NCBI GenBank assembly: GCA_044892525.1
Contig: CM097885.1
Coordinates: forward strand, 26,972,001-27,036,000
From: Schmidtea polychroa
Taxonomy: Eukaryota
Direction: 5' to 3'
DNA: 64,000 nt
The notes under the pieces are model-generated. The model was not told the origin of the DNA, ran no database searches, and saw only the letters and a program-made list of their open reading frames with translations. Shown here in pieces: positions 12,868 through 56,299 of this stretch (positions are counted from its first letter, which is position 1; each line of letters opens with the position of its first letter). A program made the translations under genes and the position numbers.

Positions 12868-12928
12868 ACAATGGGTGGTAGTCCTTCATTACCGAATTTC
12901 AAACTTGATTTTAATTCAAATTGTTGCA

Positions 12929-16554: not shown

Positions 16555-16567
16555 ACAAAGATGAAGT

Positions 16568-24208: not shown

Positions 24209-24401
24209 TATCTTATGTTATTTTTATTAAATAAATGTTTCTGTTTAAAAATCGTGTTGTTATGATATCATAATTTGGTTGTCATAATAATATTTAAAAT
24301 TTAAAATAATCAATATAATTACCTAGAGTTATCCATTATTTTCAATAATATTAGTAAATATTAATTACCGTGGACGGGTTTCATTAAAAGTTATACAAAA
24401 T

Positions 24402-24797
24402 ATGAATTTTCCTTATGGTAAACCTCAGCAAATAATAGATAAAACTGATAATTATACAATTATATTCTTCAAGACAGGGAAATGTCGAATAATGGGTTGC
24501 AAAAAACCTATTGAAAGCATACATTATAATATTAAAGATGTTCATCTTCAATCTTGTACAATTACTATTGATATCAAACAACTAATTAATTTGCAATATT
24601 TGTCAAAGAAAACAAAATGTGTATATGAACCAGAAATATTCCCGGGTTTGCGTCTCATATCTTATAACCCCTTGTGTGTAAACTTGTTTTCTAGTGGAAA
24701 AATAGTTGTACTTGGTTTAAAAACTCTAAATTATAATTGGATTGTCAACAAAATTATAAATGATGTAAATGATTTGATTGGTTCACAAAAACTATAA
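24402..24797 (+). CDS. TATA-binding protein (TBP)-like protein; frame open upstream to about 24327
   Basis: Two TBP repeats: IIFFKTGKCRIMGCK and YEPEIFPGL...VNLFSSGKIVVLGLK; upstream in-frame LVNINYRG resembles the first strand. Confidence 0.88.
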   Translation: MNFPYGKPQQIIDKTDNYTIIFFKTGKCRIMGCKKPIESIHYNIKDVHLQSCTITIDIKQLINLQYLSKKTKCVYEPEIFPGLRLISYNPLCVNLFSSGKIVVLGLKTLNYNWIVNKIINDVNDLIGSQKL

Positions 24798-24833
24798 ATA
24801 TTGTACACTTTAACATTTGTTTCATTTATTACA

Positions 24834-25189
24834 ATGTCACAAGTTTCTGAAATCGGTAAATAAATATATTTTATTCTTAAATTTTAAAATTATGTTTAGA
24901 TTATCAAATAGAAATTCTAATTAATAAAGTGTTTGAGATTTATCCGGAAATCAAAGATGAAATTATAAATTATGCTCCGGAAATTGCACCAGCCAAAATA
25001 TTTCAGGCAACTGGGATTAACATAGAGCGCATTATTTTTCACCATAAATTTATGATGTATGGATATGAAAAGCAAACTCAATTACTAAAAGATTCATGTT
25101 GTCAATATCAATGTCAAGAATGTATTACTTACAAAAGAAAACAAACAGTAAACATTCTACTCAACGAATTGTATAAATATTTCAAATAG
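24834..25189 (+). CDS. Two-exon Cys-rich hypothetical protein (exons 24834-24855 and 24900-25189)
   Basis: A 44-nt GTAAAT...TTTAG intron joins MSQVSEI in frame to DYQIEILINKVFEIYPE...; CCQYQCQEC cluster. Confidence 0.7.
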
Positions 25190-25228
25190 TTTTTTAATAA
25201 ATGTTTCATTGTTTTGAAAATTTAATTA

Positions 25229-26023
25229 GAAATAGTAAATATTTTTTAAATTGCGCGCGAAAAATAATTTTTAAAACAAAGATTCGACATCTCTGATTTT
25301 AATTACATATAAAACAAAAACATTGGTATTAATATCTCTATTTATATTGGCTCTATATATTAATCAAATGAGTTTATTTAAACAAATATTCATAGTTGAC
25401 ACAATAACAGTATACATTTGAACAAAGATTTGAAATCTCCATTCAAAACTACTATAGAAAGCTGAAAGTCCCATCAAAATATGTAAATTTTACGATGCAC
25501 TGTCATAAATAGAATGGTTGAAAATATTTCAAAGTCCGTCGGACATAGCCGAATTTTTGAGAATTATCGATTGGTTTTACTTTTTCTTAATTCCTGGGAG
25601 AACCAAGAAACTTTTCGAGGATTTTATTTCGGAATCTCCTTAGTTGAATCAAGACGCAACTTTTTTGTTAAGGATGTCTCGACTAAATATACTTGGTTCC
25701 CAATGTTCCAAAAAATATTCCTTAAAAACGTGACATATATATTGAAAAGAAATCTTTTTGTTGATTTCATATAAATTAATCTGTGTCGACAAATAACAAA
25801 TCTTTTTTCGTGGACAATGTCTGGGTGAAATCTTTAATGTAAGAAAAGCACACCTGAATAAATTTTACACATTTTGCACATTTTGCACATTTTGCACTTT
25901 GCACTTAAAAATCAATATATGCGCGATAACTCATCGATCAAACGCGCAATAACTTATCAGCAAGGGGGGGGGTATATATGCGCGATAACTCATACTGATT
26001 CATGGGGCTCACATCTACCTACT
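25229..26023 (-). repeat. Right TIR of the Polinton (about 795 bp)
   Basis: Near-perfect reverse complement of the outer and inner parts of the left TIR. Confidence 0.95.
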
Positions 26024-32311: not shown

Positions 32312-32628
32312 TGTTAGAAGCTATAACATTTAATTCTTCGGTCATCAAAATAAATTACTAAGACTATTAAATCCAAAATTATATTTCATTAAATCTGATT
32401 ATATAAACAAATATTCTTGGGACATTTTCTAAATTTTAATTTCAACCAAATATCAACATACCATCGCATTCATACTTGAATTTCAATTTTATTAAAAATT
32501 ATTTTATTTTAAAATTTCAATTATCATTTCAATTTTAATATCTTAAAATAATTTAAGTTTCAATTAAAACTTTACAAATTTTAATCATGAACTAATTTAA
32601 TTTAGTATTTTAATTTTAACTCCTCACA
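32312..32628 (-). repeat. 3' LTR
   Basis: Direct repeat of 37056-37372 with one substitution seen. Confidence 0.97.
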
Positions 32629-35600
32629 TCCCCTTTTTTTAAAATGTTTGATCTTCTCAACATTTCTGACTACCATCTTCCCATTTTGATCTTTAAGTAA
32701 GTAGCTCCGTTCATGTATTTTCTTTATCACTTTGTACGGCCCTTCCCACCTTGCATCGTCTTTATTTCGAATTTCTTGTTTGATCAAGACCACATCTTCT
32801 ATTTCAAAATCTCTCACTGTTTTGCTTATTTTTGGTTTTAGTGTTTTATCCTCTATTCTCTTTTCCATATCTTCTCTATTTATTTCTTTATTCGAGTACC
32901 ATTTCATTCTGTCGATTTTCCTCCCAAATATAATCTCTGCTGGGCTTACTCCCGTTGTTTTTTGAACTGTTGCATTTAACGTATATTCTATTTCTGGCAC
33001 TATATCAGCCCAGTTTTTCCTTCCTCCTTCATTCAATGACGCGTTAATATACTCTCTGATTGTTCTGAATTGTCTTTCAATAATACCATTCGTGTTATGG
33101 TGATATGGGCTTGAGAAAATTAATTCAATGCCAGCTGCCTTTGCTAGTTCTTTTATACTTCTTGCTTCAAAGTTCTTCCCACAATCTACATGAAGTTCTT
33201 TTGGAGCTCCAAACTTTAATATCCATTTATTTAATAACGTCTCACTAATTGTTTTTTCGTCTTGCTTGTTTATGGCCGTTAATGAGATGTATTTACTATA
33301 GTGGTCAATGATTCCGCAAATATATTTCTTTTTGTTGAACGTTTCTTTCAATGGCCCACATATATCCATATATATCTTCTCGAATGGTTCTGTACTCTTT
33401 ATTGTTTGAGTTTCCTCCTTTGTCTTGGTTGTTATCGTTTTCATTTTCTGACATCTTTCGCAGTTCTCAATTACCTTTTTTACTTCCGTTGCTAAATTTT
33501 CCATGTCGCAGTTATTCTGGATATATTTTGTTACTTTCTGTGCACCTGCATGGCACAGCAATACGTGTACTTCTTTTATCATCCTCTGTCTATTATCTGA
33601 CGGTATCCATATTTTACCTTGCTTAGTTAGTACCGTGTTGTTTTCCATTATGAACTTACAATCTTTATTTTCTAACTTATTCTTTATTTCTTGGACCTCC
33701 ATATTGTCATTTTGCCACTTGTTATATCCGCCTTCTGCTGTTACTGTTACTATTCTGGTTTTAATTTTGCCGGTTTTTGCGTCTTCGTGTTCCATCATAC
33801 ACTGTACACATGTTCCGCATGTTTTCCTGGATAGCATATCCGCGTTTGTATGGCTTGTTCCTTTCCTGTATTTCATTTTAATATCCAGGCTGCTTAAATA
33901 GTTGATCCATGTCTGGAATTGAGCAGTTATTGGTTTCTTCGTTGTTACCATAAACGTAATAGCTTTATGGTCCGTTCTCAGTACGAATCTCTTACCATAT
34001 AAGTAATGGTTGAAATGTTTACAAAAATAGTATATTGCCAATAATTCTTTTCTGGTAATGCAGTATCCTTTTTCGTGGCTGCTCATCGCATGTGAACCAT
34101 ATGCAATGACATGTTCATGTCCTTTTTCATCCTTTTGCGAAAGAACTGCTCCAATAGTATCGAAGCTCGCGTCTGTGTCTAATATAAATTCTTTTCTGAA
34201 ATCTGGAAATACCAATACTGGGGCGGTTATCAATGCTTCTTTCATTTCCCTGAAAGCCTTTTCACACATCTCTGTCCATCTTATTTTCTCATTGTTTTTT
34301 CCGCATATGCTTTCTAGTGCTCTTGCCTTCTTTGCATAGTCTTTTATGAACCGTCGATAATAGTTACAGATACCCAGAAAGCTCCTCAGATTCTTCACAC
34401 ATTTTGGTTTTTGAAATGATTGTATTGCTTCTATCTTAGTATTATCTGTTTGTATGCCGTCTTTATTTATTATGTGTCCCAGAAACTTCACTTCTTTTCT
34501 AAATATTTGACATTTTTCGGGGTTCAATCTTAGTCCTGCTGTTGCGATCTTCCCTAGGACTTTTCCAAATATGTTATAATGGTCTTCTTCTGTCTTTGTG
34601 AATATTAGGATGTCGTCTAAATATACCATCACTCCATCTTTCCACAAATCTTTCAATACTTTCGTCATTAATTCTTGAAATGTTCCTGGTGCCGCTGCAA
34701 TACCGAACGGCATCCTGTTAAAACAGAACTGTCCTTCTTTTGTTGAGAATGCTGTTTTCTCTTGAGATTCTTTATCTAACTTCACTTGGTAATAAGCATT
34801 TCCCAAGTCGATTGAGCTAAAATATCTGGATCCGTGTAGGATGTCTAAAATTTCATCTACATTTGGCATTGGAAATGCTTGTCTTTCTGTTATCTTGTTT
34901 AATTGTCTGAAGTCTAGACAAAGCCTGATGTCTTTTTTCTCTTTCTTCCATACACAAACTAAAGGTGTGTTCCACGGTGAATTACACTTCCTAATTATTC
35001 CGTTGTTTTCTAGATTTTTTATTGCTTCCTCAATCTTGTTTTCCAAATTTATTGGCTGACGTCTCGGTTTAATCATTATTGGCTCTCCTTTCGTGATGAT
35101 CTTATGTTTTATCAGATTGGTACACCCAATGTCCCATTTATCTGCCATAAAAACATTCTTGTTTGCCTGAAATATTTCTAGCAGTCTCTTATTTCCGGTA
35201 ACTTTTAAAACGTCGATGGCATGACGTAATCTTTCTTCATCTGTTATAATCCGCCCAAATCTAGCTTCTATTTCGCAAATGAAATCACTACGTTTTCCAT
35301 GTTCTTCTAGTATACATTTCAATTCTATACCAAATAACCTTTGTAGTTCTACTCCTCCAATAATTTCTGGTATTAAATTCTTTACTATAATGAATGTTAC
35401 ATTTCTTTCAATACTGCCCATTTTAACATTGATGTTTATTTTACCCATAGTTTCTAATCTACTGTTGTTTGCACATCTTAGCGATTCCCTTGTTTCTAAT
35501 ATTTCGATATTTTCTAATCGATCAATTACAGATTTAGCCATCACATTAATTCGCGCTCCTGTATCCAATAAACAATCTACTTTCCGCCCTTGGATATCCA

Positions 35601-35946
35601 GTGTTGTACTCGGTCTACCTTGCATTATATTATATGTTATTACTGGACTTTTTTGTTCTTCTACTGACAAAATATTCTGCTCTCTAGTATCTTCTACAAT
35701 TTCATTAATACACATGTCTCCATTTTTCTTGAGGAATTTGTAAATTTTCTCTATAGTTCTTTCCTCGTGTTTTACTAATTCATTTACTTTACACTCCTCT
35801 TTAAATTTTTTCTGAATTTCCTTATCATTCGACTTTTTAATTTCTACACTACTATTATTATTAATATCACGTTCAAAAACACTACAATCTTTATCAATCA
35901 TACAATCATCATACATACTTAAATTACACATACCGTTAGCATTCAT
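32602..35946 (-). CDS. pol: Pol polyprotein (protease, RT, RNase H, integrase)
   Basis: LLDTGA, YLDD, LDTDAS, H-H-C-C zinc finger, YMDICG/HVDCG/IERQF triad, GPY motif; uninterrupted. Confidence 0.97.
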   Translation of the reverse strand: MNANGMCNLSMYDDCMIDKDCSVFERDINNNSSVEIKKSNDKEIQKKFKEECKVNELVKHEERTIEKIYKFLKKNGDMCINEIVEDTREQNILSVEEQKSPVITYNIMQGRPSTTLDIQGRKVDCLLDTGARINVMAKSVIDRLENIEILETRESLRCANNSRLETMGKININVKMGSIERNVTFIIVKNLIPEIIGGVELQRLFGIELKCILEEHGKRSDFICEIEARFGRIITDEERLRHAIDVLKVTGNKRLLEIFQANKNVFMADKWDIGCTNLIKHKIITKGEPIMIKPRRQPINLENKIEEAIKNLENNGIIRKCNSPWNTPLVCVWKKEKKDIRLCLDFRQLNKITERQAFPMPNVDEILDILHGSRYFSSIDLGNAYYQVKLDKESQEKTAFSTKEGQFCFNRMPFGIAAAPGTFQELMTKVLKDLWKDGVMVYLDDILIFTKTEEDHYNIFGKVLGKIATAGLRLNPEKCQIFRKEVKFLGHIINKDGIQTDNTKIEAIQSFQKPKCVKNLRSFLGICNYYRRFIKDYAKKARALESICGKNNEKIRWTEMCEKAFREMKEALITAPVLVFPDFRKEFILDTDASFDTIGAVLSQKDEKGHEHVIAYGSHAMSSHEKGYCITRKELLAIYYFCKHFNHYLYGKRFVLRTDHKAITFMVTTKKPITAQFQTWINYLSSLDIKMKYRKGTSHTNADMLSRKTCGTCVQCMMEHEDAKTGKIKTRIVTVTAEGGYNKWQNDNMEVQEIKNKLENKDCKFIMENNTVLTKQGKIWIPSDNRQRMIKEVHVLLCHAGAQKVTKYIQNNCDMENLATEVKKVIENCERCQKMKTITTKTKEETQTIKSTEPFEKIYMDICGPLKETFNKKKYICGIIDHYSKYISLTAINKQDEKTISETLLNKWILKFGAPKELHVDCGKNFEARSIKELAKAAGIELIFSSPYHHNTNGIIERQFRTIREYINASLNEGGRKNWADIVPEIEYTLNATVQKTTGVSPAEIIFGRKIDRMKWYSNKEINREDMEKRIEDKTLKPKISKTVRDFEIEDVVLIKQEIRNKDDARWEGPYKVIKKIHERSYLLKDQNGKMVVRNVEKIKHFKKRGCEELKLKY

Positions 35947-35969
35947 TCTTTGGTTAAAATCAATATTAC

Positions 35970-37056
35970 TTAGTAAATTGCTCCGATCAATGTCCCGTTT
36001 GACGGAGCGTGCTCGTTTGGGTCATTCTCCCTGTTATACTCGTCTGGCTGGCTTGACTGTTTTGTATTCATCATCTCATCATCAGACTCGATAGCTGCAA
36101 TATCTTTTCTGTTATATTGTTGGTTTCCCCATTGTCTTTGATGTACGTTCCTTGATTGATACATATCGTCCCTTTGTTGATAGGTATTTCTTTGAATTCT
36201 TCCTCCTGACATCTTCCTTTGGTCTCGATCTCTTCCTTGATTTCGTCTTTCCATATTTGTGTAGCACTCTCTTTCTTTGTGTCCTCGTGCATTGCATCTA
36301 TGACATTTGATTGTTGGGCATTCTCTTCGTATGTGACCTTCAACACCACATGCATAACATTGAAATCTTCTTTTTATATTACATTCTCTGCTACTGTGTC
36401 CCGGTTTTTGACACGTCCAGCATTCTATCACTTTAACTCTTGTCTCTGGTTTCCATTCGTTGATTTCTCTCTTCGTGGCTCCAACTTGTACTACATCTCT
36501 ATAAGTTCTTCCCCCAGTTGTAGGTCGTATTGATCTCACCGTGTTTACTTGTTCAATAACCTTGTTAACTTTTTCTATCTTCTTTATAGTTTCTTTAATT
36601 TGTTCCGCCGTTTTGAGATCTTTCATTTCGATTTCTTTCCTGACTTCTTTATCTCTTACACAATGTGTCAATAAACATTTCTGAATTTCTTCCTCATTCC
36701 AAGTGTGTGAGGCCAATTTTTTAGTCATTTTTGATATTTTCTCTATAAATATTTCCGCTGATTCGTTACCTTGCTCGTAGTTCAAGGCTTCTCTTAAGTC
36801 ATCAATCAATGACGTTGGTCGATGAAAAGCTGCTCTTAATTTCTGTTCAACGGTTTTACCTTCTGTGGTTTCATATTCTTCAATCAAAGTCCTGTCCAGA
36901 AGTGTAATAACTAGTACCATTTGGGTCTTCACTGGTGTCTTCGCTTTTTTCAAAGAACCTCTGACATTCTTTGATAAATAATTCGAGGTCATCTCCTCTG
37001 TGGAATTTTTCTGGAAGTAATCTTCCAATAAGCAGATCCGTTGGAATGGTCGCCAT
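35970..37056 (-). CDS. gag: Gag with three CCHC zinc knuckles; frameshift in an A-run at about 36945-36950
   Basis: CWTCQKPGHSSREC, CYACGVEGHIRREC, CHRCNARGHKEREC; the N-terminus MATIPTD...ECQRFFE is in a different frame. Confidence 0.9.
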
Positions 37057-37372
37057 GTTAGAAGCTATAACATTTAATTCTTCGGTCATCAAAATAAATT
37101 ACTAAGACTATTAAATCCAAAATTATATTTCATTAAATCTGATTATATAAACAAATATTCTTGGGACATTTTCTAAATTTTAATTTCAACCAAATATCAA
37201 CATACCATCGCATTCATACTTGAATTTTAATTTTATTAAAAATTATTTTATTTTAAAATTTCAATTATCATTTCAATTTTAATATCTTAAAATAATTTAA
37301 GTTTCAATTAAAACTTTACAAATTTTAATCATGAACTAATTTAATTTAGTATTTTAATTTTAACTCCTCACA
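37056..37372 (-). repeat. 5' LTR
   Basis: Adjacent to the PBS; direct repeat of 32312-32628. Confidence 0.97.
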
Positions 37373-38085
37373 ATAATAATGTCGAGTTGTTACAAATATG
37401 TTAGAGTTGGGCCAACAGAGATTGGCGGAAAATGACATAATATGATGAATAAATAAAAATAGCAATTTTACAATTGCTAAAAATACAATATGATGGGCTG
37501 GAACCCGAGATAACCTAAATTTTCTATAAATTTGAACTTTCCATAAAGTAATTAAATGAAACCCTGTATTAACATAAATTGAGGTAGTCAGACAAATGTA
37601 AGGAAAAATAAAGAATGAGAGAAAGAAAAATAATAGAATAAAACAAAAATCACCAAAATAAAATAAATAATAAATAATTCGCAAACAGACAAACAACATA
37701 TAACCATAACTAATGTTGGGCTGAGAACTAAGACAAAAAATTAAAAGCATGAAATAATGTAAATAAGCAAAAAAGACAAAAACAATAAGAAACGACAAAA
37801 AGTACCACCAAAATCAAATAACAAATTAAAATAAATATATAATAAGAATATTAATTGAATAAAATATAAAAAAAACAAAAAAAAACAGAATTAAAACAAT
37901 AAATTTAAAGAAGCAAAAACATTAAATAAGGATAATAATAGGAAAGCGACACCAAAAATATGCAATTAATATAAAAATTTATAGAGAAAATTAATACAAT
38001 TTTAAGAGAAAACTTAAAAGACGAGTAAAATTACAAAAAATACATAAATTTTAATTAAATTAATTAATTTTGCGATACCTCGATT

Positions 38086-38223
38086 CTGATTGGTCCGCAA
38101 ATTCCACAATAGACTATATAAACTAGACATTGAAACAAAAATTTTAATGTCAAAATACCAAACATTTAGGTAAGATGAGTTACAATATTTTTATAATTTA
38201 ATATCAAAATACCAACCATTTAG
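38086..38223 (+). promoter_or_regulatory. CCAAT/TATA promoter with short first exon and 54-nt intron (38170-38223)
   Basis: CTGATTGG, TATAAA at about 38117, AG|GTAAG and TTTAG|. Confidence 0.65.
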
Positions 38224-38801
38224 GTCAACTACAAAACATTTAGCACTACGACAATTCACTTTACTCAAGGACTAAAATTACACGTTCCAGCTCACAAAAC
38301 TCGAAAACCAGACGCAGTTATTCATTATAAAGCCTTTAGAGAAAGATTTTGGTAAAATTTAATTTTTATCTATATTTCATTTTTGTATGTAACGTATTCT
38401 AACTACTAAATTAATGAAGGAATGGTTCGTGTTCCTTTTCCTTTTTTCATTTTTAATATCTGTAATACTTTTAATATTTTTTTTAAAAAGTTTCACATTT
38501 TATATTTAGTATTTTAATAAAGCTTTTCATTGAAATTAACTATGTTTTGATTTTTTTCGTAATATCGTACTTAAAATAATTATTAATAAATAAGAATGAT
38601 TTTTAATATGAACATTTGGCAGATAATTTATTCGCACACTCATCAGGCCATACTAGAGGTGAACCGAACAACAGTCGTCTCGTTACTATCAAAAATTTAA
38701 CCCGATAAAGACGTGAGAGTAAACGCGAACCAACAGTAACTAATTCACTCAACCTTATCTGTAATTAAGAAAAATAGCTAAAAAACAACACGACTTAGTC
38801 C

Positions 38802-38919
38802 TGATTGGACGAAAATTAGTATATAAGACGACCGTTAAGTTAGTTAAGTAATTACTCTAACTTCACTACAGGTAAAGTTTTTCAATTATTAACAATTAAT
38901 TACTCTAACTTTACTACAG
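38802..38919 (+). promoter_or_regulatory. CCAAT/TATA promoter with short first exon and 48-nt intron (38872-38919)
   Basis: CTGATTGG, TATATAAG, CAG|GTAAAG and CTAAC...TACAG|. Confidence 0.65.
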
Positions 38920-39953
38920 GACTAACTTCAGTACAGCAACTTTAACTACTAATAATCATCAGGAACTCATAGAACGACTAATTTTAGCAAACATTTTACA
39001 GATTCATTTAGCAACGATTTAGAATAGAAACTACTTTATCGCAAGTTATTACGGGACAATATTAGATTCAGGAACTTTAGCTATTGAAACCATTTCAAAG
39101 ATCCGTATATTCAGTTCAGTTTAACAGTTCGAGCAAAGCCGTTAAAGAACCAAGTAAAGATTTTGATTATTGATGATTTTATCTTTATTATTTTAATTTT
39201 TACGAGTGAATTCTAATAGTAAATTATCATGAATGTATAAATTTTCATTAAACAAAATATTATATTTATTAGCACACTTGTCTTTTCTATTCACGGAACT
39301 GGCGACGGTGCCGTTTGAAATCTCTGGATATGATGCCAATGAACCGAGGACACGAGAATTATAATTCGAATAGTTTCGAAGACATGTAGTTGGATCCTAT
39401 AGATAAAATGATTGGAAGGAAGATTCTATTATGTCAATGAGGAATCATCAGAAGAATTCAATATGAGCATTGTTGGAAAATGAACTGCGTTAGTAAAGTC
39501 CCATGTCGTGCATCATACTCAGAAACCAAAGGACATGGTCGCCAGGTAAATTTGATATTGGTGGGTTACAGGTCGTCTAATTTCTACCTACTCGCGCTGT
39601 TTCCAGCGTAACCCAGAATACAATGAAACCGTTGACCGCTTGACACCCGTTGAGCAATCAACGTTGGTACTGTGTCAAGGGTTAGGGTACTAGCAAAAGG
39701 TGAGCATGCTTAACATACTATAATTGTCTAGCACCCTCTGGGGTTCACGGACTGCCGATAGAACGCTTATGACCGATTTCTCTAGGTCCCCGTTATGACA
39801 ATTGACGTTTTCGAATAATCGGAATACACGAACGCTAACATAACAACAATGATTTTTTATTTGAGATCACCCCTTTATATGACGAGTTCATGAGGCTCTG
39901 GTAGACTCCTTCGGGGTAGTCGATTGAATTGGTGTTTGTACCAGGCTGGCCTG

Positions 39954-40276
39954 TCATCCGGGTAGCATCCTAGGGTACCCGTCGATGTCCTCCAGGTCGC
40001 CGGCTAGGGTTGCATCCTCGAGCCGTTGTAGTTGATCCACAGCTGCCTTTCCATCTTCGAAGGCTTCGACCAGAGCTAGGGAGGTGGCGTTGACGAAGGG
40101 ATCACCGGGACCACATTCTGGTAGGTCCAGTCGTGAATCTTGTACCAGATCCACCTTGACCTTAGTCGGGTGACTTCTCCATCTCGGTCCGGATTGGTGG
40201 AGTCTTCTGCCTCCTCGTGGCTCGGGTCGGTTGGTGAGGGACCGGCCTGTGCATTTCTTTGTCTAGTGTTGGGCAT
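39954..40276 (-). pseudogene. Small acidic/disordered ORF (MPNTRQRNAQAGPS...) with a frameshift near 40160
   Basis: GC-rich coding-like island; acceptor TTTTATCACAG directly before the ATG; two overlapping track ORFs. Confidence 0.45.
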
Positions 40277-40832
40277 GCCTGTGATAAAATAACATTAAGG
40301 TACTTCCTAACGAGCCTTTTGATCACCAATTCTGGTTTTATAAAGCAAATCTTAAATTCCGACTCGACCTTAGGATTAAACTTAAAGACACGGTCTTCGT
40401 CTTTTAACTTGAGAAGTATATATTGGCCAAACCAAGCTGAGGGCATAATTTTATATCTTGGCTCCAAACTTTAACTTAATGAAACTTAACTACAGCGAAA
40501 TCTTTATGCTCTGTTGGGCTGAGTCGGAAAATCAATTTGGGAAATTAGGAAAATAAAATAAGCAAGAGGCTAAAGAAAAACAAAATAAAATAAAACAAAT
40601 TACGAATAAAATATAAGAAAAACAATAATTAGGAAATAAGAATTAAAACAAAAATAAAAATAGAAAATTAAAATAGGACAATGGAAAAACGGATAAAATA
40701 ACGTAAAATTCAATAAATAATAAGGAAATTAAAGAAATAAATAGAAAATATAATAAAAATAAAGAAAATAGGAAGAAATAACCAAAAACAAGAAAAATAA
40801 ATTAAAGCAACAAAATTAAGCGGTACTCAATT

Positions 40833-40960
40833 CTGATTGGTCCGCACACACAGAAAATTAATATATAAACACGCACAAAAATCATAAAATTACTGTTAAT
40901 CTAAACATTCTACAGGTAAGAGTACTTTTAAATAATACTGTTAATCTAAACATTCTACAG
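40833..40960 (+). promoter_or_regulatory. CCAAT/TATA promoter with ~25-nt first exon and 45-nt intron (40916-40960)
   Basis: CTGATTGGTCCGCA (shared with 38086), TATAAA at about 40864, CAG|GTAAGA and TCTACAG|. Confidence 0.7.
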
Positions 40961-42826
40961 ACCTACAATAACCGACAAGGATAATCAACAATCAAAATCA
41001 TTTTCTAGGAGCATTCAGAGATCGAAATCGAGACAACTAATTACTGAGAAAGTACCGAATCTATTTCCGACTCAGCCTACAACACTACAAGTGATACGTA
41101 AGCAGATTTTTGTTTGAAAGTATTAGTAATCATGAGATGTTCGTAAAAGTAAAATTAAATGAATTATGATTTTCTTTTCGGTTGATCCCTATTAATATTT
41201 TCATATAATTTTAATGATTAAATAAATGGTTTTAATGATAAATGCGTTGTTTTAGATATATTTATGAATTAGTCGGAAAGTCTATAATTTTATGATTGTG
41301 CATTTTATGAGAAACGTGGAGTTGAGACGTTTCATGTCATGGTGTGAGGGGCCTTCGGGAGCTCAGCCGGTGGACATGAAACGTTTCAATCACGCAGCTG
41401 ACTTGGGCCGAAAAGTGGGGGCTTCCTCACGGGTCCGTCGCTGAAGGTTCCTAACTTAGTTGAAACAGTGGACTATAGATATATGAGAGATTTCAATTAG
41501 AAAATTTAGCTACGTTCATGATTCACAGTGATTTGAGGCGGCCACCACCAATTTTTCGTATCTGGAAAACTGTTATCCACCATAAGTCTGATTCGTAGCA
41601 CTAGTTCAGGCGACCGTAATCTATAAATCCGAGTTCGTCAACCCTCATCACATCTTGGTATTCAACCATCTACTTGATTCTTCCAAAAAATCATCTTAAT
41701 TCGAGAATTTTACTTCAATACCTGATAACTATCTGACGGGGTATCATAAACAACTTATACACGAAAAAGCAAAACACAAGACTTCCAATATAACCACACT
41801 TTATTTTTGAAAACGCTGGTTAACCAAAATATAGTACTTACAAAATGTTTCCGAAAATTAGCCGTCGGAGTAAGATTCATGGTCATCTTTTAGATAAGTA
41901 ATCCGATTCCCTGTCGTAGAATATATCCCACATTAGGGAAAGCCTCGTAATCATAAATCCACATTCTGCAGGTGAAAGCGAGTAAACGGAGGGGAACTGA
42001 CAAACACATAATTTTTCCGATATTGTCACCCGGTAAAATCTCATCCAACTACCCATGTGTGAATGCGAAATGCAATTGATATCGACAGTAGATACAGATA
42101 AGCATCCATGAGAATAGCACAGGACTACCAGCTTATCATGATCAGCGAGAGCATTTGTTGTAATATGTGTGCGACATGAATTATTAGATAGACAGCAGCC
42201 GGTGAGTAGGATCGATAACTATCACCGTGCAGTACACCGAACCGACCAATAAATCACTGACTTTTATCTGGTGCGAAAGTGTCTCGTGGCGCTGATAATG
42301 AGTAACAAATTAATCCGCTAGTCGACTTGGGGTCAACTCTCCACTGCAAACTATTTTTGTAATGTTCACGTTTTTAGACCACCATAATAATAAATAAACT
42401 GCCCTGCGTATATTTAAATCCTCGGCATGAAAGATATTAAATGGGAGGAGGAAATGCCTGTTGGGGGAATAATTCGTCTCGAATTATGTTAACTATAATA
42501 GTCTTGGGTCGAGGTCTAAATAATGAAGTGAGGGTTTAGGGAGGAATTCGGTGTGTGTTGAATTTAGTAATAGCATAATTGTCACCATGATCCCGGATTT
42601 TGCATTTGTCAATACAATCGTGCCTAACTATGTAAATAAAATTATGTAATAAATCTAGCAGTAACAAATTAATTACCTGAGATTGTAAATTTCTTACTAG
42701 TCAGTGTGGTCTCCTTGTTTTGTTGTAAGTATCAAATATGAATAAATAATCTGTAGGGTGGAGTGATGTCTTCATAAATGCCGTATATTTGTATAAAAAT
42801 TTTCTTCACTTTTCTATCTAACTGTC

Positions 42827-43576
42827 ATGCTACCGAATAATCGACCCGCATTACGTCCTTGTTTCTCCTGCGCCGATAAAAACTCTATTATCAAGGATCT
42901 GCAGGCCCAGATCGGTCGATACAAGAAGAAGATCGACGAACTGGAATGCACATGGTTCAGCCCAGTGCAAATGAAGGAGGTTCGAAAGAAATTATATCGC
43001 AGTGAGCATTGTCGGGATGCCCTGATTTCTGAGAGCCGTTCCCAACGGAGCTTGATAAAGGAGCAATCTGAAGCGCTCCACAAAGTATATTTACAAGCAG
43101 CAACTACGAGGCAATTAGTCAGTATACCCATTCACGAAGCGGACAATGTTTTCCCGATACATCACGACACCTCGTTTAAGTCGTCACCTCCGGCCAAGAA
43201 GTCTTGTCGGGAATGTGTTGAAGCCGACCTCTCCCCCAGGCATCCAGATATCGTTTTCCCCAAGATCGGTAAGGTGCCAATCGCCGGTACCTCTACCTCG
43301 GCGGTACCTCCGATTAGTCAGGTGGCACCAAAACCCAAGCGACGGCAATTGTCGAGAGCCGATCGCAAGAGAAAACAGCGAGAGCGCGCGGCCGCCAAGC
43401 ACAACGAACAGCCAGCGGAGAATCCTATTAGTGTTCAGCACCCTCCGACGACAATTGATCTGACCATCGGGGTCCCAGGGCGAATTATCTCCGCCGCTGG
43501 AGTGACCTGGGAGGAAAATGCCTCCGAATTCTTTGATTTGGAAGAGTTGTTGGCCGACACTGAGTGGGAAAAATGA
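42827..43576 (+). CDS. Element-encoded 249-aa protein: CxxC, coiled coil, basic NLS-like segment, acidic tail
   Basis: Intact GC-rich ORF with two clear paralogues in the window (PCFSCxDKN...FSPxQMKE...EHCRD...SEALHKVY). Confidence 0.85.
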   Translation: MLPNNRPALRPCFSCADKNSIIKDLQAQIGRYKKKIDELECTWFSPVQMKEVRKKLYRSEHCRDALISESRSQRSLIKEQSEALHKVYLQAATTRQLVSIPIHEADNVFPIHHDTSFKSSPPAKKSCRECVEADLSPRHPDIVFPKIGKVPIAGTSTSAVPPISQVAPKPKRRQLSRADRKRKQRERAAAKHNEQPAENPISVQHPPTTIDLTIGVPGRIISAAGVTWEENASEFFDLEELLADTEWEK

Positions 43577-45524
43577 GAATCCTCTGTCCGTTCAACCCGC
43601 TTCGAAAGACGAATATCAATGTTTCTTTTCTTATTTTCTCATCATTCATGTATAACTGTGCGGTGTAAATTATCAACGTTTTATCCCATCGTGAGGAAAT
43701 AAATCATGTTTGTTGCTAATGTTCTTATTATATTTTTTGTGTAAAGTTTATGACATAGATTTTAGTTATTCTAATCAATATCAGTGAAAATCTTTATAGG
43801 ATCTATAAGTGTCTTCTAAGGCCGGGTTGTTGGTTTGAACGAACGGTCTGATGATATGAGTAGACGTAAGTCCTTCTATCGGCAGTCAAGGGAAGGAAGT
43901 CGAGGCCTCAGTAAGGAGTAGTCCAAAGGTAGGGGCTCACCTGCTTACTGGCGTCTCGCCGACATAGTGCATTACCAACGTGAAGTAATTCACGGGTACT
44001 ATGCTGGAATATAAGTTGTGCGGGGTACCGCTCGGAGTTACAAAGGGAATGGATAAAACAGACAAAGTAGACCATCATCTCCTAGGCAAAAAGTGAAATT
44101 GTAGAGGTGAGTCCGAGTAGTGCCCCAGCAGCTCATTCACTTTAAAATTCAGATTAAAGAAAAATATTTTCGACCCTAATCTAATTTTACAAATTAAGGA
44201 GGAAAAATCCAACTCGTCATATACTTTAAACCTTAATTGAAAGTCAGATTTCTTATTTTTCGAATTTCTTAATTTATGATATTGTTTTAGTTCGCTACTT
44301 AATTAAAAAAATATTTTATGTCAACATGTTACTATTTAAAATTCTCTTTTTTAAATATTAATGGCTTTCCACCGAAACCAATTGCAAGGTGTCGAACGGT
44401 AATGCTTGGAGCTTTGCACAAGCTACTTACCCTCTTCTACCAACAATTGTAGTAGGTGGAACTTTCGTCTTACCACATAAAAAGGTAAATTTTATTTGAT
44501 CTGCTACAAATTGAATTTTAGGTATTTGTTTTGGCTAGTGAATTTTACTAGTGGATTGATTAGTTGCGGAAATAATGCTGGGAATTCACGGGACGTCTCG
44601 ATTTGATAGTAGAATTGGTTGGTGGATACCTAACGTAATGGAGATGGATTTGTTCAGTTCATTCGTCATTTACATCATTCGACTTTCCTTTTTCCATTTC
44701 AATCGGTAAGTTTAATTTCAAGTCAAGAATTTTTAAATGCGATCGTACATGTCTAATTATAGGATATGGTATAGTTGCACAGGGAGCTAATGGGGAGATA
44801 AATGATGATCACAACTTTAGATTTAGACTCTTGGATATATCAGCAATTCTGTGTTGACTGAGGCTGTGATAATAATAAAAATTCCTGGTGTTATTATTTA
44901 TGGTGAATTATTGCCGATATGTGACGGTTGTATGTTAATTTCTGATTAAAAATTTTGCTCTGAGATGAAAATATAGGTTGACTGAAAATTATTTCAGGGT
45001 GATAATAATAGCTGTAATAATAATGATCACATCGATGGTCTACATCACGGATGATAATGAAATCGCGATAACCTCGACACTAACGGTGCTATTACTACCG
45101 GTAACAATAGTCGATATAACGGCAGGGGGAGTAATGGCAATTTCATAATTTATTATACATATTATTGAACTTGAGGTCTATACCATTGTCTCCTCTCATT
45201 ATATAACCAGGGAGGGGTGGCTTGGGTAATTTTAGATTATGTATTTATCTATTTGATGTCTGCATATACATACTCACACACATACACCCACGTATGCACA
45301 CAGATATATAGGTATATATGTACATCATTACATTACTTTGGGGTGGGGGTTGTTACTAAAAATAGATTAGGGGGGTTTGGTAATTTTATTGGGGAATAGG
45401 ACTGTTGAAGTTAAATCTAGAGATAGGGGATTTCCAACATTAACACTTTGTTTATATTATTTTTATAAAATAAGATTATTTTAATAATATAATACCATTA
45501 GTGGGAGCGACTGAGTTAAAAGAA

Positions 45525-45775
45525 AAATTGTGAAAATAATAATGACAATCATACTAATATTAATGATGATACCGCCATTAAGGGAAACATAGTAAAAATA
45601 CTAATGACAATAATAATGATATTAATGATGATAATATTACTAATGTAAAATTTGAAAAAATAATAATGACAATAATAATGATATTAATGATGATAATATT
45701 ATTAAGGTAAAATTTGTAAAAGTAATAATGACAATAATAATGATATTAATGGTGATATTATTATCAAAAAAAAAT
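45525..45775. repeat. Minisatellite, ~63-bp unit, about 4 degenerate copies
   Basis: Recurring TAATGACAATAATAATGATATTAATGATGATAATATT. Confidence 0.8.
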
Positions 45776-48179
45776 TTATATTTTTATAAGACTATTACCT
45801 ATCCACGGCTTGAGGGGGGTTAATTATGAAAAATTGTTCAAATTAATTTCTAGACGAAGTATAAGTGAATTTATCTAAAAATAAAATAAATTAGAGCCGT
45901 TGGGTAACCATTATTGAGTATGGTCCAAGGGGGTCATTTATGGAAAATTTCTAAATTTATATCATAAAGATAATCTAAGCAAAATATGCATATAACATAA
46001 TCAAACATAGATTTGGAGAAGTACCGTTGGACGATAAAAATTTAAAGTTTTTATATAACTTGTCTTTAGTACATATAAAAATAAACCTAAAAAAGAACTC
46101 TGACGAAATAACTTAGGAATCATTTTATAATTAATCAAATAGACACAAAATAAGGATTACATTTTAACAAGTGCAAAAATCTAGATGTTAATAAAGATCG
46201 TGTACGTTTGGGTATTAGTCACATGACATAGACCTTGAGGGGTGAATATAAAAATCGTATAAGGTATTTCTGGCGAAATTAAGCTTTCGAATATAATTTT
46301 GGCTAGTTGTTATGATCCTAAATGATGAAAAGATATTTTATTCCGTGATATTTCTAGGTGTAGTAGACTTTTAGATAATAATTAGGTTTTCTAAACATTT
46401 AATTTTGTACTACTATATGATGATAGGTGGTTCGTTAGAAATTATTGTAGGGTCGTTACACTGTTAGCCTTCTAATATTAATTTTTATAACATCAAATAA
46501 GGAAAAGGTAGGTTACTTCGAAGTGGATTTTAAGTTTTCGAACCAAGATATAGTTTTCTGAAATAGTATAGTAGAAATATAATTTATTCGAAGAGGCATT
46601 GGTATCATTTTATTTAATTTCTGTCTTTATATTTTTGTTGTCTTTCCTCTTAATTAATATTGTTTATTTGATGTATTTTTTATATTTAACTGAACTTATT
46701 GCTATTTGCGTGCTATGTACCCACGCACGAGTTTTTGGGTCTAGAAATCAGTTCTAGCCCAACAATATTGATAATTTAGAAAACGAAATGAAATTATTGA
46801 CACAGTTTTATTTATGTATTATTTCACATTTATGATTTATTAGCATTGATAATTACGGTCGATCGGTCTATCGTGGCGGTCTCGATACGGTCGGTAGCAA
46901 TACCGGTGGTCCCCAGGTGAGCCTTGGTAAGTGGAAAGACCACTGAGGAGATATATAGAAATTTCGAAATATTAAAGGAAAATAAGTGCCTTCATCGAGT
47001 GGCAGACATCATAGATTAGTAGATCGCTGATTTTCGAGACTAATATCACAAGTTTCTGATATGAATTTCAACCCTTTTGATAGTTAGAGAGTGACAAGGA
47101 TTGTGGAGACAATCGAATCGTCATAAGCGTTATCAGTATAATCCGATAGGGAATAGATAATCCAATTGTCGACTTAAAAACTACAGTAGTTATTTGTGAA
47201 CATGAGATAACTAGATTCTTGCGAAACGAATAATTACTCCAGGTGGCCAGATCATGTCATTAGTTATCGCTAGATAGTAAATCCTTGACTTTCACCGTAA
47301 TTGCCAGAACATTTTTAACGTAGACATTCCAATGTAAAACGAACGTCGATAGAATTTTCTTCATTTCACCATTGTTAATTTAATAAACCGAAACCTCCTT
47401 TCATTAGATCGATGAACGCTGGTAAGGATAATCTATACATCCTGCCGACGAGATTTCATTTTCCATATAATTCATTCCAAAAATTGTCTTAGTAAAATAA
47501 ACATTGATGATAGATTAAGTAAACTAATTCGGATAAGATCGAGAAATGATTTACATAAATTGATAAACATTATTTCCATCTCTTAACGTCAATTACATAA
47601 ATCTGAAAGTCATAGCATGGGGAGTACCAGTCATCCGGGTTTTCGATAAATAAATCAGATTAGATCAAGATTAGTGCGAGAATAAACAATTTATCAGATA
47701 ATCATTCCTCACATAGAATTTACACGATAATTATCTGTGAATCAACCACGTTGTCAAACAAATTAACCACATAAACAAATCCATGTTAGTAAGAATTTTA
47801 ATAATAAGGTAAATTAAATCTTCCAAATTTCCACTTATAAACACAAATCATTTATGTTAATAAGAATATAAATTCCTTCTAAACGATTGTATTTTCTCAC
47901 GCAGTTCATGCAGTGTACGGCCGATAATACATAAAATCCCGAAAACGTTTTTTCGAATAATTAATACTTCGTCAAATGAAATGAATCATTCAGGTTGATC
48001 AAACCTCACCCTTAGTAACATCAATATTCAGGGAAAATGTCGTTCGTAAAATGTATGGAATACGGGGTATCGAGATAGTATATGGAGTGAAAGGGAAGGG
48101 AATTGTTATGAAATGCTTACTAATCTGCTACAGCTGAACTTTTCTCCTGTCGCGTTAAACTCTTATTTATTTTTCAGTT

Positions 48180-48941
48180 ATGTGCGAGCCGAATCTACAG
48201 CCGAAAGGGCCAAGACCTTGTTTTTCCTGTGCAGACAAAAATGCCGATATAAAGAAACTGCACGAGTACATAGGGGCTTTGAAGAAACGCATTGAAACAT
48301 ACGAATGCACATGGTTCTCCCCGCCACAAATGAAGGAGAAAACTAAAATCTTGAGACTGGAGCACTGTAGAGACAGTCTCCTCGAAGAAAGTAGATGTCA
48401 GAGATTGACCATCAAGGCCCAGTCGGAAGCCTTGCATAAAGTATATTCAGAATAGGAAATCCAGAAGAGAATACGGGAATACCCTATTAAGGACGGAACC
48501 AACGTGTTCCCTCTTCATCACCGAGCTGATGAACTACAATTTCCCGTAACCAATTTCACAGGACATGGAAGTCAATTTCCACTCATAGCCGATTCAATCT
48601 TGTCTGGATCATTAAAGGAATCTAAGGCACCAGTAACGAACGACAAGGAACCAATTCCCGCTCAGATTTCTAATCTCATCACCGAACCCACTACTTCGTC
48701 GCCGAAGAAGCGCAAACGCCCTTCTCGGGCAGAGAAGAACCAGAAACGTCGAGATGCGATGGCCGCTTTGGAGGCATCCTTATTTGCGGCTCAGGCGTCA
48801 AAGGACGCAATCCCAAAGAAAATTCCGCTCGTCTCGGAAGAAACTTATCGCATCATCCCTTCCGAAACTCTACACTCTCAGGAATATGCTCGGCTGCAGG
48901 TGGACATAGACGATCTGTTAGCCGATGGAGAGATGCTTTAG
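48180..48941 (+). pseudogene. Paralogue of the 42827 ORF with an in-frame TAG at 48453-48455
   Basis: The two track ORFs are in the same frame; shared motifs and acidic tail DIDDLLADGEML. Confidence 0.8.
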
Positions 48942-49203
48942 TGAACACTGATATGATATCCCAGAAAATGCTGTTCGAACCCGAATGAACCTTACTCTCG
49001 GACATTCTGTATAAAGTGATTTGGGCTCTTCATTCTATTGTATTTGGTTAAATCGAGTCTCTCGGGTGCGAAGGTATAGGGAATTCTTTTTTCTTTTCTC
49101 GATCTATTATCGACGATCATAAAGGTCGAACAGATATTTTTTCAATTTCATTACCCATGATTCCGTTACTTAACTTTGCTATTACAACTTGATTACTTTA
49201 GAA

Positions 49204-49971
49204 ATGTCGAAAACCCCAACAGCTACGACTCTTCTTCTGCCATGCTTCTCATGCACCGACAAAAACGCAATTATCAAAACATTGCAAACCCAAATCAGAC
49301 TACTGAAGAAGAAGTCAGATCATCTCGAAGGGACATATTTCACTCCCGCTCAAATGAAAGAAGTGCGAATGAAGTTGTCGCGGGCCGAACACTGCCGCGA
49401 TAGTCTGATCGAGGAGAGCCGCTCGTTGCGACTGTTAGTCAAGGAGTAGTCTGAGGCCCTGCACAAGGTCTACGTGCAGGCAACGATTACGAAAAAGATC
49501 ACCTCAATACCCATCTCGGAGGAAGATAATGTTTTCCCGGGATATCATCCATCAGTCCCGTCGGAAAATCGAGCCTGCAATAGTTGCATGGACGAGCTCC
49601 TATCGCCCACAATATCTGACGCTCGTGCCGCTGGTGTCAACAGAGTGGCCTCAAGGCCTATCGTTATCTTGAATCCAGTCCCTCCTCCGGTGGTAAAAGC
49701 AACCCCTAAGCGTCGACAACCAACACGGGCCGAACGAACAAAAAGACGGAAGCTACTCCAAGCCGAGCGAGAGGCGAAGTTGGTCTCCGAAGCCATGCAG
49801 ATGTCTCGATCTGTGCCGGCTGAAACAGTAGCTCTATCACAGCCTCCGTTTCGGGTAGTCCCATCATCCAGCACTACCTGGGAAGAAGATGCGAGAGATT
49901 TCTTCGATCTCGACATGATTTTCGCCAAAGCTTCCTCGTCGACCTTGAAACATTATGTTCAAGAATTATGA
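49204..49971 (+). pseudogene. Paralogue of the 42827 ORF with an in-frame TAG at 49447-49449
   Basis: Same-frame continuation; TWEEDARDFFDLD matches TWEENASEFFDLE. Confidence 0.82.
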
Positions 49972-50559
49972 TGTTGTTATTGAATGAGCAGACCAGCTAT
50001 CATCAAATCCTTTTGTTTAATTCTCTGCTATTAATAATTCATGTAGATACACCCTCAGTATGCTGTGGAAATTGGTGTTATAATGGTATTTCTTTAAATA
50101 AATGTTGGATCACGTAGTAATGATAGTTCTGATATCTGTTTCCGAAGTTTTCTTTTGTTGTATTGTAAAAAATGGTGAAACCATGGTGATGAATGAGAAA
50201 TTGATAGTGAAGTCACATAATTTTGATCGATACCTCGAATAATGGAAAAGACATAAGCCCTTCTACCGGCAGTCGGGAAATGGAGAAGTCGAGGTAGGGT
50301 GAAGGAGTAGTCCTAAGGCAGGGGCTCACCTGCTTCACCTTATCTCGCCATCATGGCACAGTACCAACATGGTGTGAATCATGGGTGTCATGATGAGAAA
50401 GTAGTCGTGTAGGTTTTTGATTAGCGGTCAACATAATATGGTGTAAGGTTATTTTTTTGGACTATAATCCCCTGGTAACACGTAAACTCTTGTTGAACTA
50501 GGCGACTCTTTTGGAGTATCTTTTGGAGTCAGATAGTGTGAATAATGCTTGATCGCTAT

Positions 50560-52858: not shown

Positions 52859-53401
52859 TATTAGGAAATATTATCAGCTATAATAATAATTACTCAAATT
52901 AAAATTTTTATATTAGGAATTATTATTAAGCATTATGGATATGGGATTCAAATTCGAGCTTGGAATGACGGGTTCCGGATAGAACCTGGCCAACAATCCA
53001 GAATGACTATGCACGAACGCACAAACTCCAACCACAACCGAGGGTTTATTCTGCTATCCAATGTAAATCAATGATTCATTACTCGAGAAATCCCCCCAAC
53101 GGACAATGATGGTAATGAGGTTAGAGACAGAGACTGGCTGATTGAGTATAAAAGTAGCTTGAGACGCAAACGCCACTAAGAATGGAGTTGCGTTTCCCAA
53201 ATCTCTATTAACCAGCCGACAATCGTGCCAAATTCTTTAGTTGATGCTTCGAAAGAATATGATGCACAATACCAGATCGAGTTTATCAGAACAAATATGT
53301 TCCTTTCGAAAAATAAAAATCCTGAGTTGCGTCTGTGTGCATCTGTTTTTGGGTTCTGAATTTTATTTTGTGTGCGCACACAAACGCAGACAATTGGTGA
53401 T

Positions 53402-55027
53402 TAGGGCTTGCAATACCGATTTACCGGTTAACCGGTAAATTGCTAAAAAATTCATTACCGAAAAACCGGTAAATTCATTATTTTTTACCGGTTTTTTCGG
53501 TAAAAATTTAAACTTTATATTACACAATATTTATCGTTTTGTTCCGTTCCGTGCATACTATTTTATAAGTAAATAGTTGAATTTAATATTTAAAATTAAT
53601 AATTATACTATAATAAAGAAATTCGACTTTATTTATAAAGTAGTATGTACGGAACAAAACGAAAAATATTGTAAAATATAAAAAGTTTCACACTTCTGTT
53701 CAGTGGTCACAAGTCACACTCGCACCTAAGTAAATATAAAACAAATTTTTGTTTCTTGTTGTGTATGCAAATGCGTGAAATATTCATGCTTAATATTCTA
53801 TTATTCTATCATATATATGTTAAGTGCTCGCTCAAACCGTGTTAAGTGCTCGCTCAAACCGAAGTAGAAATTTTTTATTTGTTTGTAATATTCAAGTTAT
53901 ATACTGACAGAAACGAATGTTTTTCGTGGAATTTCGAAATATTGAACAATTTTAACTGTTAAAATTGAAATACATAAATTGTTGCAGTATATAATTTATA
54001 AAAAATATATCAATTTTTTTTAATATAATAGAACGTCTCATAAAATTTAATAAAGGTAAGGTAATACAAAAAATACTAATTTATTCGTTATTTAAAACCA
54101 AAAAATATTTTAGCCATCATGCGTTCAAATTTAATATGGACCTATTTCAAAGAAACAAATAAGAATGAAGCCGTCTGCAATAGTTGTGCGAAACCGATTA
54201 AATGTGTTGGTGGTAGCACTAGTGGTTTGCATGCCCATCTTAAATCTCAGCATAAAATTAATCTATTGAAGAGAAAAGATGACGAAAGTGATATGGCATC
54301 ATCTAGTCAAATTACAAACAAAGTCATCGCTAGCACTACAAACAATAATATATCAAATTTCTTTATAAAAAAGGTTGATGATTCACTTCCAGCTGTTCTC
54401 GCGCGTTTGACAGCAAAAGATAATATACCGTTTTATAGAGTTGCCACATCCTACGATATCCGAGTACTAATTAAAGCTAAATATAATAAAGAAGTACCAA
54501 GATCTTCCCATACGATCAAAAAAATTGTAATGGACTATGGGGATAAAATTCGCAAACAAGTGGTTGAAGATTTATCCAACCGAAAAGCTAATAATAGTGT
54601 ATTCAGTTTGACGTTTGACGAGTGGACGTCTGTTAAGAATCGACGATATATGAACATAAACGTTTCAGCAGCCGGTCTGATCTGCACCAAGTTGAGGTCG
54701 ATCTTAAATGATAACACGTTAAACACAATGTGTTTTTAAGGCAGTATTTTAATCAAAAACAAGAGTTGAAATGAAGTTTTAATTTTTTTCTAATTTGCGT
54801 TTATACTTTTTTTTATATATTATAATGTTATGATTATGAATTAATAAAATAAAAGAATGAATTAATAAAATAACTGACTTGAATTTTATAAAACATATTA
54901 TAAGTAATTAGTTTGAATAAAATATCAACTAACTAAAATACTCTCAAAATTACCGGTTTACCGGTTTTTTCCACATAAATTACCGAATTACCGGTAATTG
55001 AAAAAGTCGGTAAATTTGCAAGCCCTA
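53402..55027 (+). mobile_element. Internally deleted hAT transposon, 1626 bp
   Basis: TIR TAGGGCTTGCAA, perfect 8-bp TSD TTGGTGAT, subterminal ACCGGT repeats. Confidence 0.96.
54119..54739 (+). CDS. Truncated hAT transposase: BED finger and first catalytic Asp fused to the C-terminal tail
   Basis: IWTYF...CNSC...HLKSQH BED finger, LTFDEWT, then SAAGLICTKLRS typical of the hATC end. Confidence 0.85.
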   Translation: MRSNLIWTYFKETNKNEAVCNSCAKPIKCVGGSTSGLHAHLKSQHKINLLKRKDDESDMASSSQITNKVIASTTNNNISNFFIKKVDDSLPAVLARLTAKDNIPFYRVATSYDIRVLIKAKYNKEVPRSSHTIKKIVMDYGDKIRKQVVEDLSNRKANNSVFSLTFDEWTSVKNRRYMNINVSAAGLICTKLRSILNDNTLNTMCF

Positions 55028-56299
55028 TTGGTGATTCGAGTTGGTAATTGTCGGGTTGATTTATCGAATTTTGGAGTCTTGGATTTTTTGTATGAATTTT
55101 TCGGTTTTATGTAAAATTATTAGAAGTTTTGTTTTAAAAAGGGAACTTGTTTAAATTTTGTACGTTTTGTGAATTCAGTGATTGAATTCAGCACTCCATA
55201 AAGCCGACAGAGAAGTTTATATGTCACTAAAGTTGTGTATTGACAAAACTTGACTGACGGCGATGGCATGCGCAAATTGCCAACGAAACCAGGAGGTAAA
55301 TAAATGCCACGTCTCCAGCTACAATGACATGACAGTAGAGAAATTCACACACACACCCAAGCACACCACGTTAATCAATAATGCTGTACTCCAATCGTTG
55401 ATAACAGGAGGATGAAAGAAATTGTCAAGAGTGTGTAAGTGCAGGTTGCGAAAGGATCGGTGTAGGGGAAACACACATATTCAATATAAGTAATGATTGA
55501 GAAAAAACTGACATTTTCATTCTAAAACAGTAAATGGCAGACAGAAAACAATCCACGAACTCGAGAGGCATGCAGGAATTGGAGTCTCTTTCACGAAGTA
55601 AATTTTTCCAATCTTTTCTAATGTCTTTATTAAATCATTAATTCTATGCGGCCAACCAAATTTTCTTTTATCTCCCGACGATACGAATGGACGGGCATTC
55701 AAATGGTGTTTCAGGCAGGACATTGTCACCTAATTGTAATCGTGATTGTTCAACGTCTGTAAATTTTAAAAGCCTTACAATATGTCGAATTGTCGATAGT
55801 TCTCATAAGTAAAAATATTTTTACAAAAAAGAATGTTAATGAAAATACTCCGGCGAAATTTAATCTAGATTGTTGACATTTGGAGATGTTAAAAGCCCTA
55901 CAAAAGATAAAATTTTCAACGTTTCGTTCAGTAAAACATTTTTCTTGCAGCAATTATTAATATGAACAAATACACATTTGATTTTATTGATTTCTTGGAC
56001 ATTTTTCAATATATGTCCTTAACATTTAACCACAGATGTTGTTTCTATATTTATTATATTCAGTATTTCAGTTTTGTCAAATATAATTTTTGTTGATTTA
56101 AAAAATTACTTGAATGAATTTTTTTTGGATTTCATTTTCTATTAACACTGAAGAGGCCTCATAAATAATCTTAAAATTTCGTTAAAGAAATAAAACTGGA
56201 TAAATACTTCAAACAACGTTAAGACCGAAATCTTTAATTTTTTTATCATGAGGTTTGAATTTAACTTTATGCTGTGTTTACGCTTTATAATACCTAGAT

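Follow-up and report, generated by a model that had tools for sequence, protein, structure and literature searches.

The DNA considered here, referred to throughout as the window, is a stretch of 64,000 nucleotides from Schmidtea polychroa (assembly GCA_044892525.1, contig CM097885.1, positions 26,972,001 to 27,036,000 of the forward strand) with a GC content of ∼30%. Positioned between 40512 and 44130 on the plus strand is a solo long terminal repeat (LTR) of 3,619 bp, the TG..CA ends of which carry a short inverted repeat and are flanked by a 4-bp target site duplication (TSD), GCTC. Within it, at 42827 to 43576 (+), lies an open reading frame (ORF) encoding a protein of 249 amino acids. Two related genes are arranged in tandem on the same strand at 48180 to 48941 and 49204 to 49971, in a sister unit that shares its 3' block with the LTR. 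Their products are 45% and 39% identical to the 42827 protein, respectively (39-45% being the range given for the family), with tblastn E values of 9e-58 and 1e-38. The kinship of the three paralogues, as proposed in a first-pass annotation of this DNA, is upheld, but not the intactness of all of them. The 48180 and 49204 genes are each interrupted by one in-frame premature stop, at codons 92 and 82, respectively, and 42827 is the only uninterrupted copy. In both tandem genes an acceptor-like AG lies immediately before the ATG. Translations in which the stops were kept as breaks gave three colinear products.

Common to these products are an N-terminal CFSC motif, a kink of the form T-W/Y-F-S/T-P, an invariant EHCRD block, and the motifs SEALHKVY and NVFP, after which follow a variable linker, a K/R patch, and an acidic tail. 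The first-pass annotation had pointed to the CFSC, to a second CxxC in two of the paralogues, and to a basic segment, and all are indeed present as described, with 10-12 of 25 residues in the basic patch being lysine or arginine in each of the three. The tail, which it had described as both acidic and aromatic, is acidic in every case; that of 48180 is leucine-rich and contains neither tryptophan nor phenylalanine. The order of elements in the 42827 protein is the CxxC, helices from residues 15 to 40 and 46 to 95, a disordered linker with the second CxxC, a basic helix from 177 to 193, and the acidic tail from 226 to 249. The two long helices were predicted with confidence by AlphaFold (monomer, three-row alignment, pTM of 0.32), which also gave the basic helix, with the tail of 42827 modeled as a low-confidence helix and the remaining protein as disordered. 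The heptad core fraction of helix 1 is 0.62 in all three paralogues.

The synonymous sites of the paralogue pairs are saturated (pS of 0.80-0.95), and thus the ratios derived from them are qualitative only; as judged from the aligned codons, neutrality is excluded. Rather than the dN/dS near 1 that had been named as a contrary outcome, purifying selection was found, with a pN of 0.21-0.31 in residues 11 to 113 and bootstrap limits on pN/pS of 0.16-0.52 for this region in all three pairs. The C-terminal half evolves fast, with pN/pS limits of 0.48-0.86. Identity by codon position is 26-35% at the third versus 55-63% at the second.

No credible homologue was observed in Pfam, the PDB, 1.84 billion representative proteins, or two fold libraries. 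Pfam gave weak matches alone, every one below cut-off, the PDB sequences gave none, and Foldseek returned nothing at E≤0.001 in the PDB or viral libraries. Three word-index protein searches yielded nothing at threshold among 870, 123, and 7425 candidates, and the best score in an atlas search, 0.82, was at the level of a lead only. Likewise, no match to Gag or Env, the other contrary outcome that had been raised, was obtained by sequence or fold in any library, and the window's own gag and pol frames score at background level against the family profile. The sole match from a full HMMER scan (E of 2e-4), a repetitive, bacterial-looking surface protein aligned to profile positions 98 to 149, was judged to be chance. 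The family is undescribed in the literature searched; Grohme et al. 2018 with its supplements and the Repbase entries, which lay outside that search, may already depict these ORFs.

When the window was scanned under relaxed settings for pairs of ends flanked by matching letters, many chance pairs emerged, and a TSD alone is therefore insufficient to call an LTR. The boundaries at 40512 and 44130 were addressed with contigs from four public sequencing runs. Five contigs, distributed over all four runs, depart from the window exactly after position 44130. Empty-site contigs from three of the four join position 44131, with a single GCTC, to sequence matching the left flank of the host unit at 25 of 30 letters. 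This host of the insertion is a related LTR-like unit on the minus strand (39559 to 46764), delineated by its ends and its TSD, ATAT. Finally, one 488-nt contig from run X7 continues for 6 nt beyond the LTR end and then reaches a tRNA-Pro primer site that agrees with the site given in PMC1769482 at 15 of 18 letters. The chance of such a match was estimated by hand at ∼3 in 10 million per position. On the basis of the exact-end, empty-site, and primer-site contigs, 40512 to 44130 is a solo LTR. The earlier placement of the 42827 gene and of a frame at 9299 in TSD-bounded, LTR-like units lacking gag and pol is likewise borne out: the units span 40512 to 44130 (GCTC) and 7136 to 10008 (TTAT), both have TG..CA ends, and neither contains gag or pol since stop-free runs in them reach at most 259 and 111 codons, respectively. 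Taken with the selection tests and the library searches, the boundary contigs support the claim of an LTR-borne, selected, and unrecognised family, and a selected gene is almost certainly carried by this LTR.

Summed contig depth in the bin covering the helical coding region exceeds that in the preceding bin by ∼17- to 22-fold in three of the four runs (3,700-4,900 versus ∼210-220) and by ∼6-fold in the fourth, whereas the depth of contigs identical to the window is 12-28 (runs X1 and X2). Summed contig depth is no copy number, and the pattern is taken to mean no more than that related copies are numerous and that their conservation is concentrated in the coding part.

In terms of its signals, the LTR looks like a self-contained gene, with CCAAT and TATA boxes, splice signals, the ORF, and a poly(A) signal all inside. 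The predicted promoter, a CCAAT-type box followed by a TATA box, is located at 40836 to 40869 (+). These boxes and a splice donor are located 325-405 nt from the LTR start and have counterparts in sister units: the CCAAT/TATA pair is repeated in 38075 to 38200 and in 38790 to 38925, and a TATA box with a donor is found in the units beginning at 7136 and 58160. A short GT..AG intron candidate follows exon 1 at 40916 to 40960 (+). In two units (40891 to 40960 and ∼38850 to 38920) this short first intron finishes with a repeat of the sequence that closes exon 1. Among the 15 joints listed of the 290 in run X7, which covers the intron and is only guessed to be RNA, none is of the GT..AG type, and this provides no evidence either way. 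The AATAAA poly(A) signal lies at 43698 to 43703 (+), 433 nt before the LTR end. Indeed, an AATAAA is positioned 303-433 nt from the unit end in all four units examined, as compared with an expected 0.05-0.13 per 150-nt band, the band having been chosen afterwards. Downstream is a conserved block, likely U5, at 43834 to 44020 (+), which is 68% identical to 50222 to 50409 and contains motifs common to the four units. The four blocks that follow poly(A) signals are those at 43834 to 44020, 50222 to 50409, 39640 to 39790 (-), and 9790 to 9935; the first two of these fold into a similar long stem from differing letters.

A conserved hairpin block at 41315 to 41450 (+), situated between the promoter and the ORF, is a candidate RNA target (fold z of -4.3, a value reached by none of 200 shuffles). 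Of nine stretches folded it alone stood out; two were borderline (z of -2.2 and -2.3) and six did not differ. Summed contig depth is ∼18,000 in the hairpin bin versus ∼140 in the next bin. The hairpin has no match in Rfam. The idea of a hammerhead ribozyme in these units was dropped, as Rfam shows no family there.

The 42827 product is likely a nuclear regulator of its own element and is most plausibly, if tentatively, a transcription activator. From its anatomy, the nuclear, dimeric transactivator envisaged in the first-pass annotation is plausible. A promoter near position +350 of the LTR would yield a short mRNA that is spliced and terminates at the poly(A) signal preceding the LTR end by 433 nt. 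This would place the gene inside an unusually long R region, and therefore any LTR, including a solo one, could make the short mRNA without gag or pol, whereas genome-length RNA would need both read-through and intron retention. The oligomer core is predicted to consist of the CxxC and the two long helices. Nuclear entry would depend on the K/R helix, as would a tether to the LTR DNA or to the hairpin at 41315 to 41450 in the nascent RNA, while the C-terminal acidic helix would recruit host coactivators, so that full-length elements would receive positive feedback in trans. In a sister LTR, the tandem genes at 48180 and 49204 would represent a version that has been duplicated and is now broken. 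Extended to its limit, this reading would make the LTR a spliced regulatory gene that is complete in itself and lies in an R region of 2.8 kb, such that each LTR, solo ones included, could make an activator working in trans and a switch from short LTR-only mRNA to genome-length RNA would constitute an early/late program, as in complex retroviruses, held wholly in the terminal repeat; this fuller scheme is rather unlikely to hold in its entirety.

In favor of the activator assignment, none of the three tails carries a strict export signal, and a hydrophobic-x-x-hydrophobic-hydrophobic motif occurs in register in all three paralogues. By equation 3 of PMC10550315, an activation domain is predicted for 39-residue tiles that are acidic and rich in tryptophan, phenylalanine, or leucine, and 4 of the 211 tiles of the 42827 protein, all of them terminal, pass. 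A supposed likeness of the 49204 tail to the VP16 motif was not confirmed.

Several observations weigh against an activator expressed from this LTR. The spacer between the LTR end and the primer site is longer than usual, and the primer-site evidence itself consists of one contig from one run. In the copy of 42827 present in the window, the splice acceptor seems damaged when compared with related contigs, and because of this the copy may be silent. Passing tiles were also obtained with control proteins (51 of 4946 tiles, in 4 of 18 proteins), and the rule is obeyed by only one of the three paralogue tails, with no passing tile in 49204 or in 48180, the latter falling short by one charge. The precision of the rule is, moreover, only 0.2-0.7 (PMC10550315). 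The tail is less well kept than the helical core, 4 of 19 positions being invariant versus 43 of 85. The basic helix is ∼80 residues removed from the long helices, unlike the arrangement in bZIP proteins, and the Foldseek searches of the PDB and viral libraries gave no DNA-binding fold.

The main rival, less probable than the activator though a serious contender, is a post-transcriptional regulator of the Rev/Rex/CERV type. Here a structured element in unspliced RNA would be the ligand of the basic helix, and the tail would bring in the export machinery, or machinery for anti-splicing or poly(A) read-through, so that genome-length RNA keeps the LTR introns. It fits the same protein layout nearly as well. 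W/F-rich acidic termini are, against this, more typical of activation domains, and the basic patch is of mixed composition, with 5-7 arginines in 25 residues. The presence of both splice and poly(A) signals within the LTR would require genomic RNA to stay unspliced and to be read through at the 5' signal, and the conserved hairpin (z of -4.3) between the promoter and the ORF would offer a suitable target. There is also a precedent in CERV, an LTR retrotransposon protein described in PMC10309623 with a helix hairpin, a cysteine loop, a KRKK sequence, and a candidate export signal. The tails were scanned for export signals with eight patterns, the classes being those named in PMC5358978. A relaxed class-2 pattern occurs in register in all three tails, but it also matches 82 of 100 control windows, and the strict CRM1 export pattern is found in none of the three.

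Less probable again, and on balance improbable, is an anti-silencing or host-adaptor function, in which the acidic tail would sequester a host factor of chromatin or of the piRNA pathway, or divert it, with no direct activation of the promoter. The duplication of the paralogues and the fast-evolving C-terminal half (pN/pS limits of 0.48-0.86) would suit a conflict with the host, and planarian LTR elements, Burro included, are reported in PMC8532177 to be repressed by the nuclear protein SMEDWI-2; the library searches, however, revealed no motif or fold tying the protein to a known suppressor. A structural gag or env fragment, or captured host cargo without a function for the element, is very improbable: long helices do occur in Gag N-termini, two of the three window copies are broken, and the searched libraries may miss planarian transposon proteins, but the protein is under selection, which makes such an origin unlikely, the gene has its own acceptor, stop, and poly(A) signal, and there were no matches in Pfam, the PDB, or the 1.84 billion representatives, with the window's gag and pol at background. 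The genes described here constitute a real, selected, uncatalogued accessory family in long LTRs, for which a regulatory role is likely, an activator being somewhat more probable than an exporter.

The retroviral regulators Tat, Tax, Tas, Rev, and Rex are small and basic, with cysteines and an effector tail, as is the 42827 protein, and some retroviral ORFs (nef and sag) reach into the LTR. Such LTR-overlapping ORFs lie in U3, whereas the 42827 ORF has the predicted promoter of a single LTR before it and the poly(A) signal of that LTR after it. To these regulators, for two of which, Tat and Rev, the roles are summarised in PMC7264820, the present family gave no sequence or fold match in the libraries searched. 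The additional ORFs of plant elements (Grande gene23, RIRE2, and Retand) resemble it in being conserved orphans, some of them nuclear, that have been proposed to be accessory regulators (PMC7264820). They differ in that they are internal, in most cases located after pol and before the 3' LTR and frequently antisense, and are therefore lost from solo LTRs.

The giant gypsy-like planarian elements Burro/GYPSM1 share with the present units very long LTRs, accessory ORFs, and an AT-rich genome full of them (PMC6431247). These elements exceed 30 kb and encode a polyprotein of ∼4,900 residues with MATH, BIR, BCL2, and env-like regions (PMC6431247). Compared by description, they differ in that the portion of PMC6431247 dealing with accessory ORFs and polyprotein domains names no gene inside the LTR. 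CERV, from the Cer1 element of C. elegans, is likewise the product of a spliced accessory gene of an LTR retrotransposon and is a nuclear protein of orphan sequence with a helix hairpin, cysteines, and a basic signal (PMC10309623); for the 42827 gene, splicing and nuclear location are predictions. CERV is, in contrast, a protein of 517 residues with exons shared with gag and with ring-forming and G-like domains (PMC10309623), whereas the 42827 protein contains 249 residues, is encoded within the LTR, and has an acidic tail at its C terminus.

Solo LTRs are generally regarded as leftover promoters that encode nothing. Were those described here to hold an expressible regulator, an animal genome would contain a large number of scattered genes acting in trans and persisting after the loss of their parent elements, and Tat/Tas- or Rev-type control would have arisen independently in invertebrate retrotransposons, for which the one tested case found is CERV. 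The open 249-residue copy at 42827 makes the question of activator versus exporter directly testable.

Also noted in the first-pass annotation as a distant paralogue was the short coiled-coil frame at 9299 to 9622, located in the solo-LTR-like unit at 7136 to 10008 (+). This relationship is not established. The kinship is weak, and the frame has no CFSC, basic patch, or acidic tail. Against the full profile it scores 1.0 bit, a value reached by 113 of 1000 plain and 95 of 1000 heptad-preserving shuffles, and its tile ranks 16th of 1533 in the window, among the background. Against the profile of the N-terminal half it scores 6.0 bits, reached by 2 of 1000 shuffles. Given that the frame holds the equivalent place in a related LTR, a common origin is possible. 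Three overlapping CxxC motifs are clustered at 9626 to 9685 (+), directly after its stop. A better distant member, absent from the first-pass list, is the decayed copy with several stops at 27728 to 27955 (-), which scores 21.4 bits (0 of 1000 shuffles reach this value). It is followed by a K/R-rich stretch at ∼27180 to 27500.

The unit holding the tandem pair terminates in a poly(A) signal and conserved 3' block at 50097 to 50480 (+), its exact end being uncertain (∼50480 to 50545), and the relaxed end-pair scan of the window gave no clean TSD for it. Within 37491 to 38925 are two promoter blocks and LTR starts stacked at 37491 and 37714, and a 1-kb unit with an imperfect TSD (37714 to 38735) possibly lies inside the unit containing the tandem genes. 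The host unit at 39559 to 46764 (-) contains a different short acidic frame at 39954 to 40294 (-), apparently frameshifted, before its poly(A) signal; this frame has no Pfam match.

Mobile DNA crowds the window, with nested units having TGTTGGG-type starts among it. A Polinton lies between long terminal inverted repeats at ∼10134 to 26023, and we take its frames to encode a polymerase, an integrase, an ATPase, and capsid-like and TBP-like proteins. A second Polinton seems to begin at ∼59980 and to break into the unit with its start at 58160. Positioned at 32312 to 37372 (-) is a small Ty3/gypsy element that displays 317-bp LTRs with 99.7% identity, together with a zinc-knuckle gag and a pol frame. 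Finally, a fragment that is presumably hAT-like extends from 53400 to 55030, with a zinc-finger-type frame (54119 to 54739) positioned between inverted ends.

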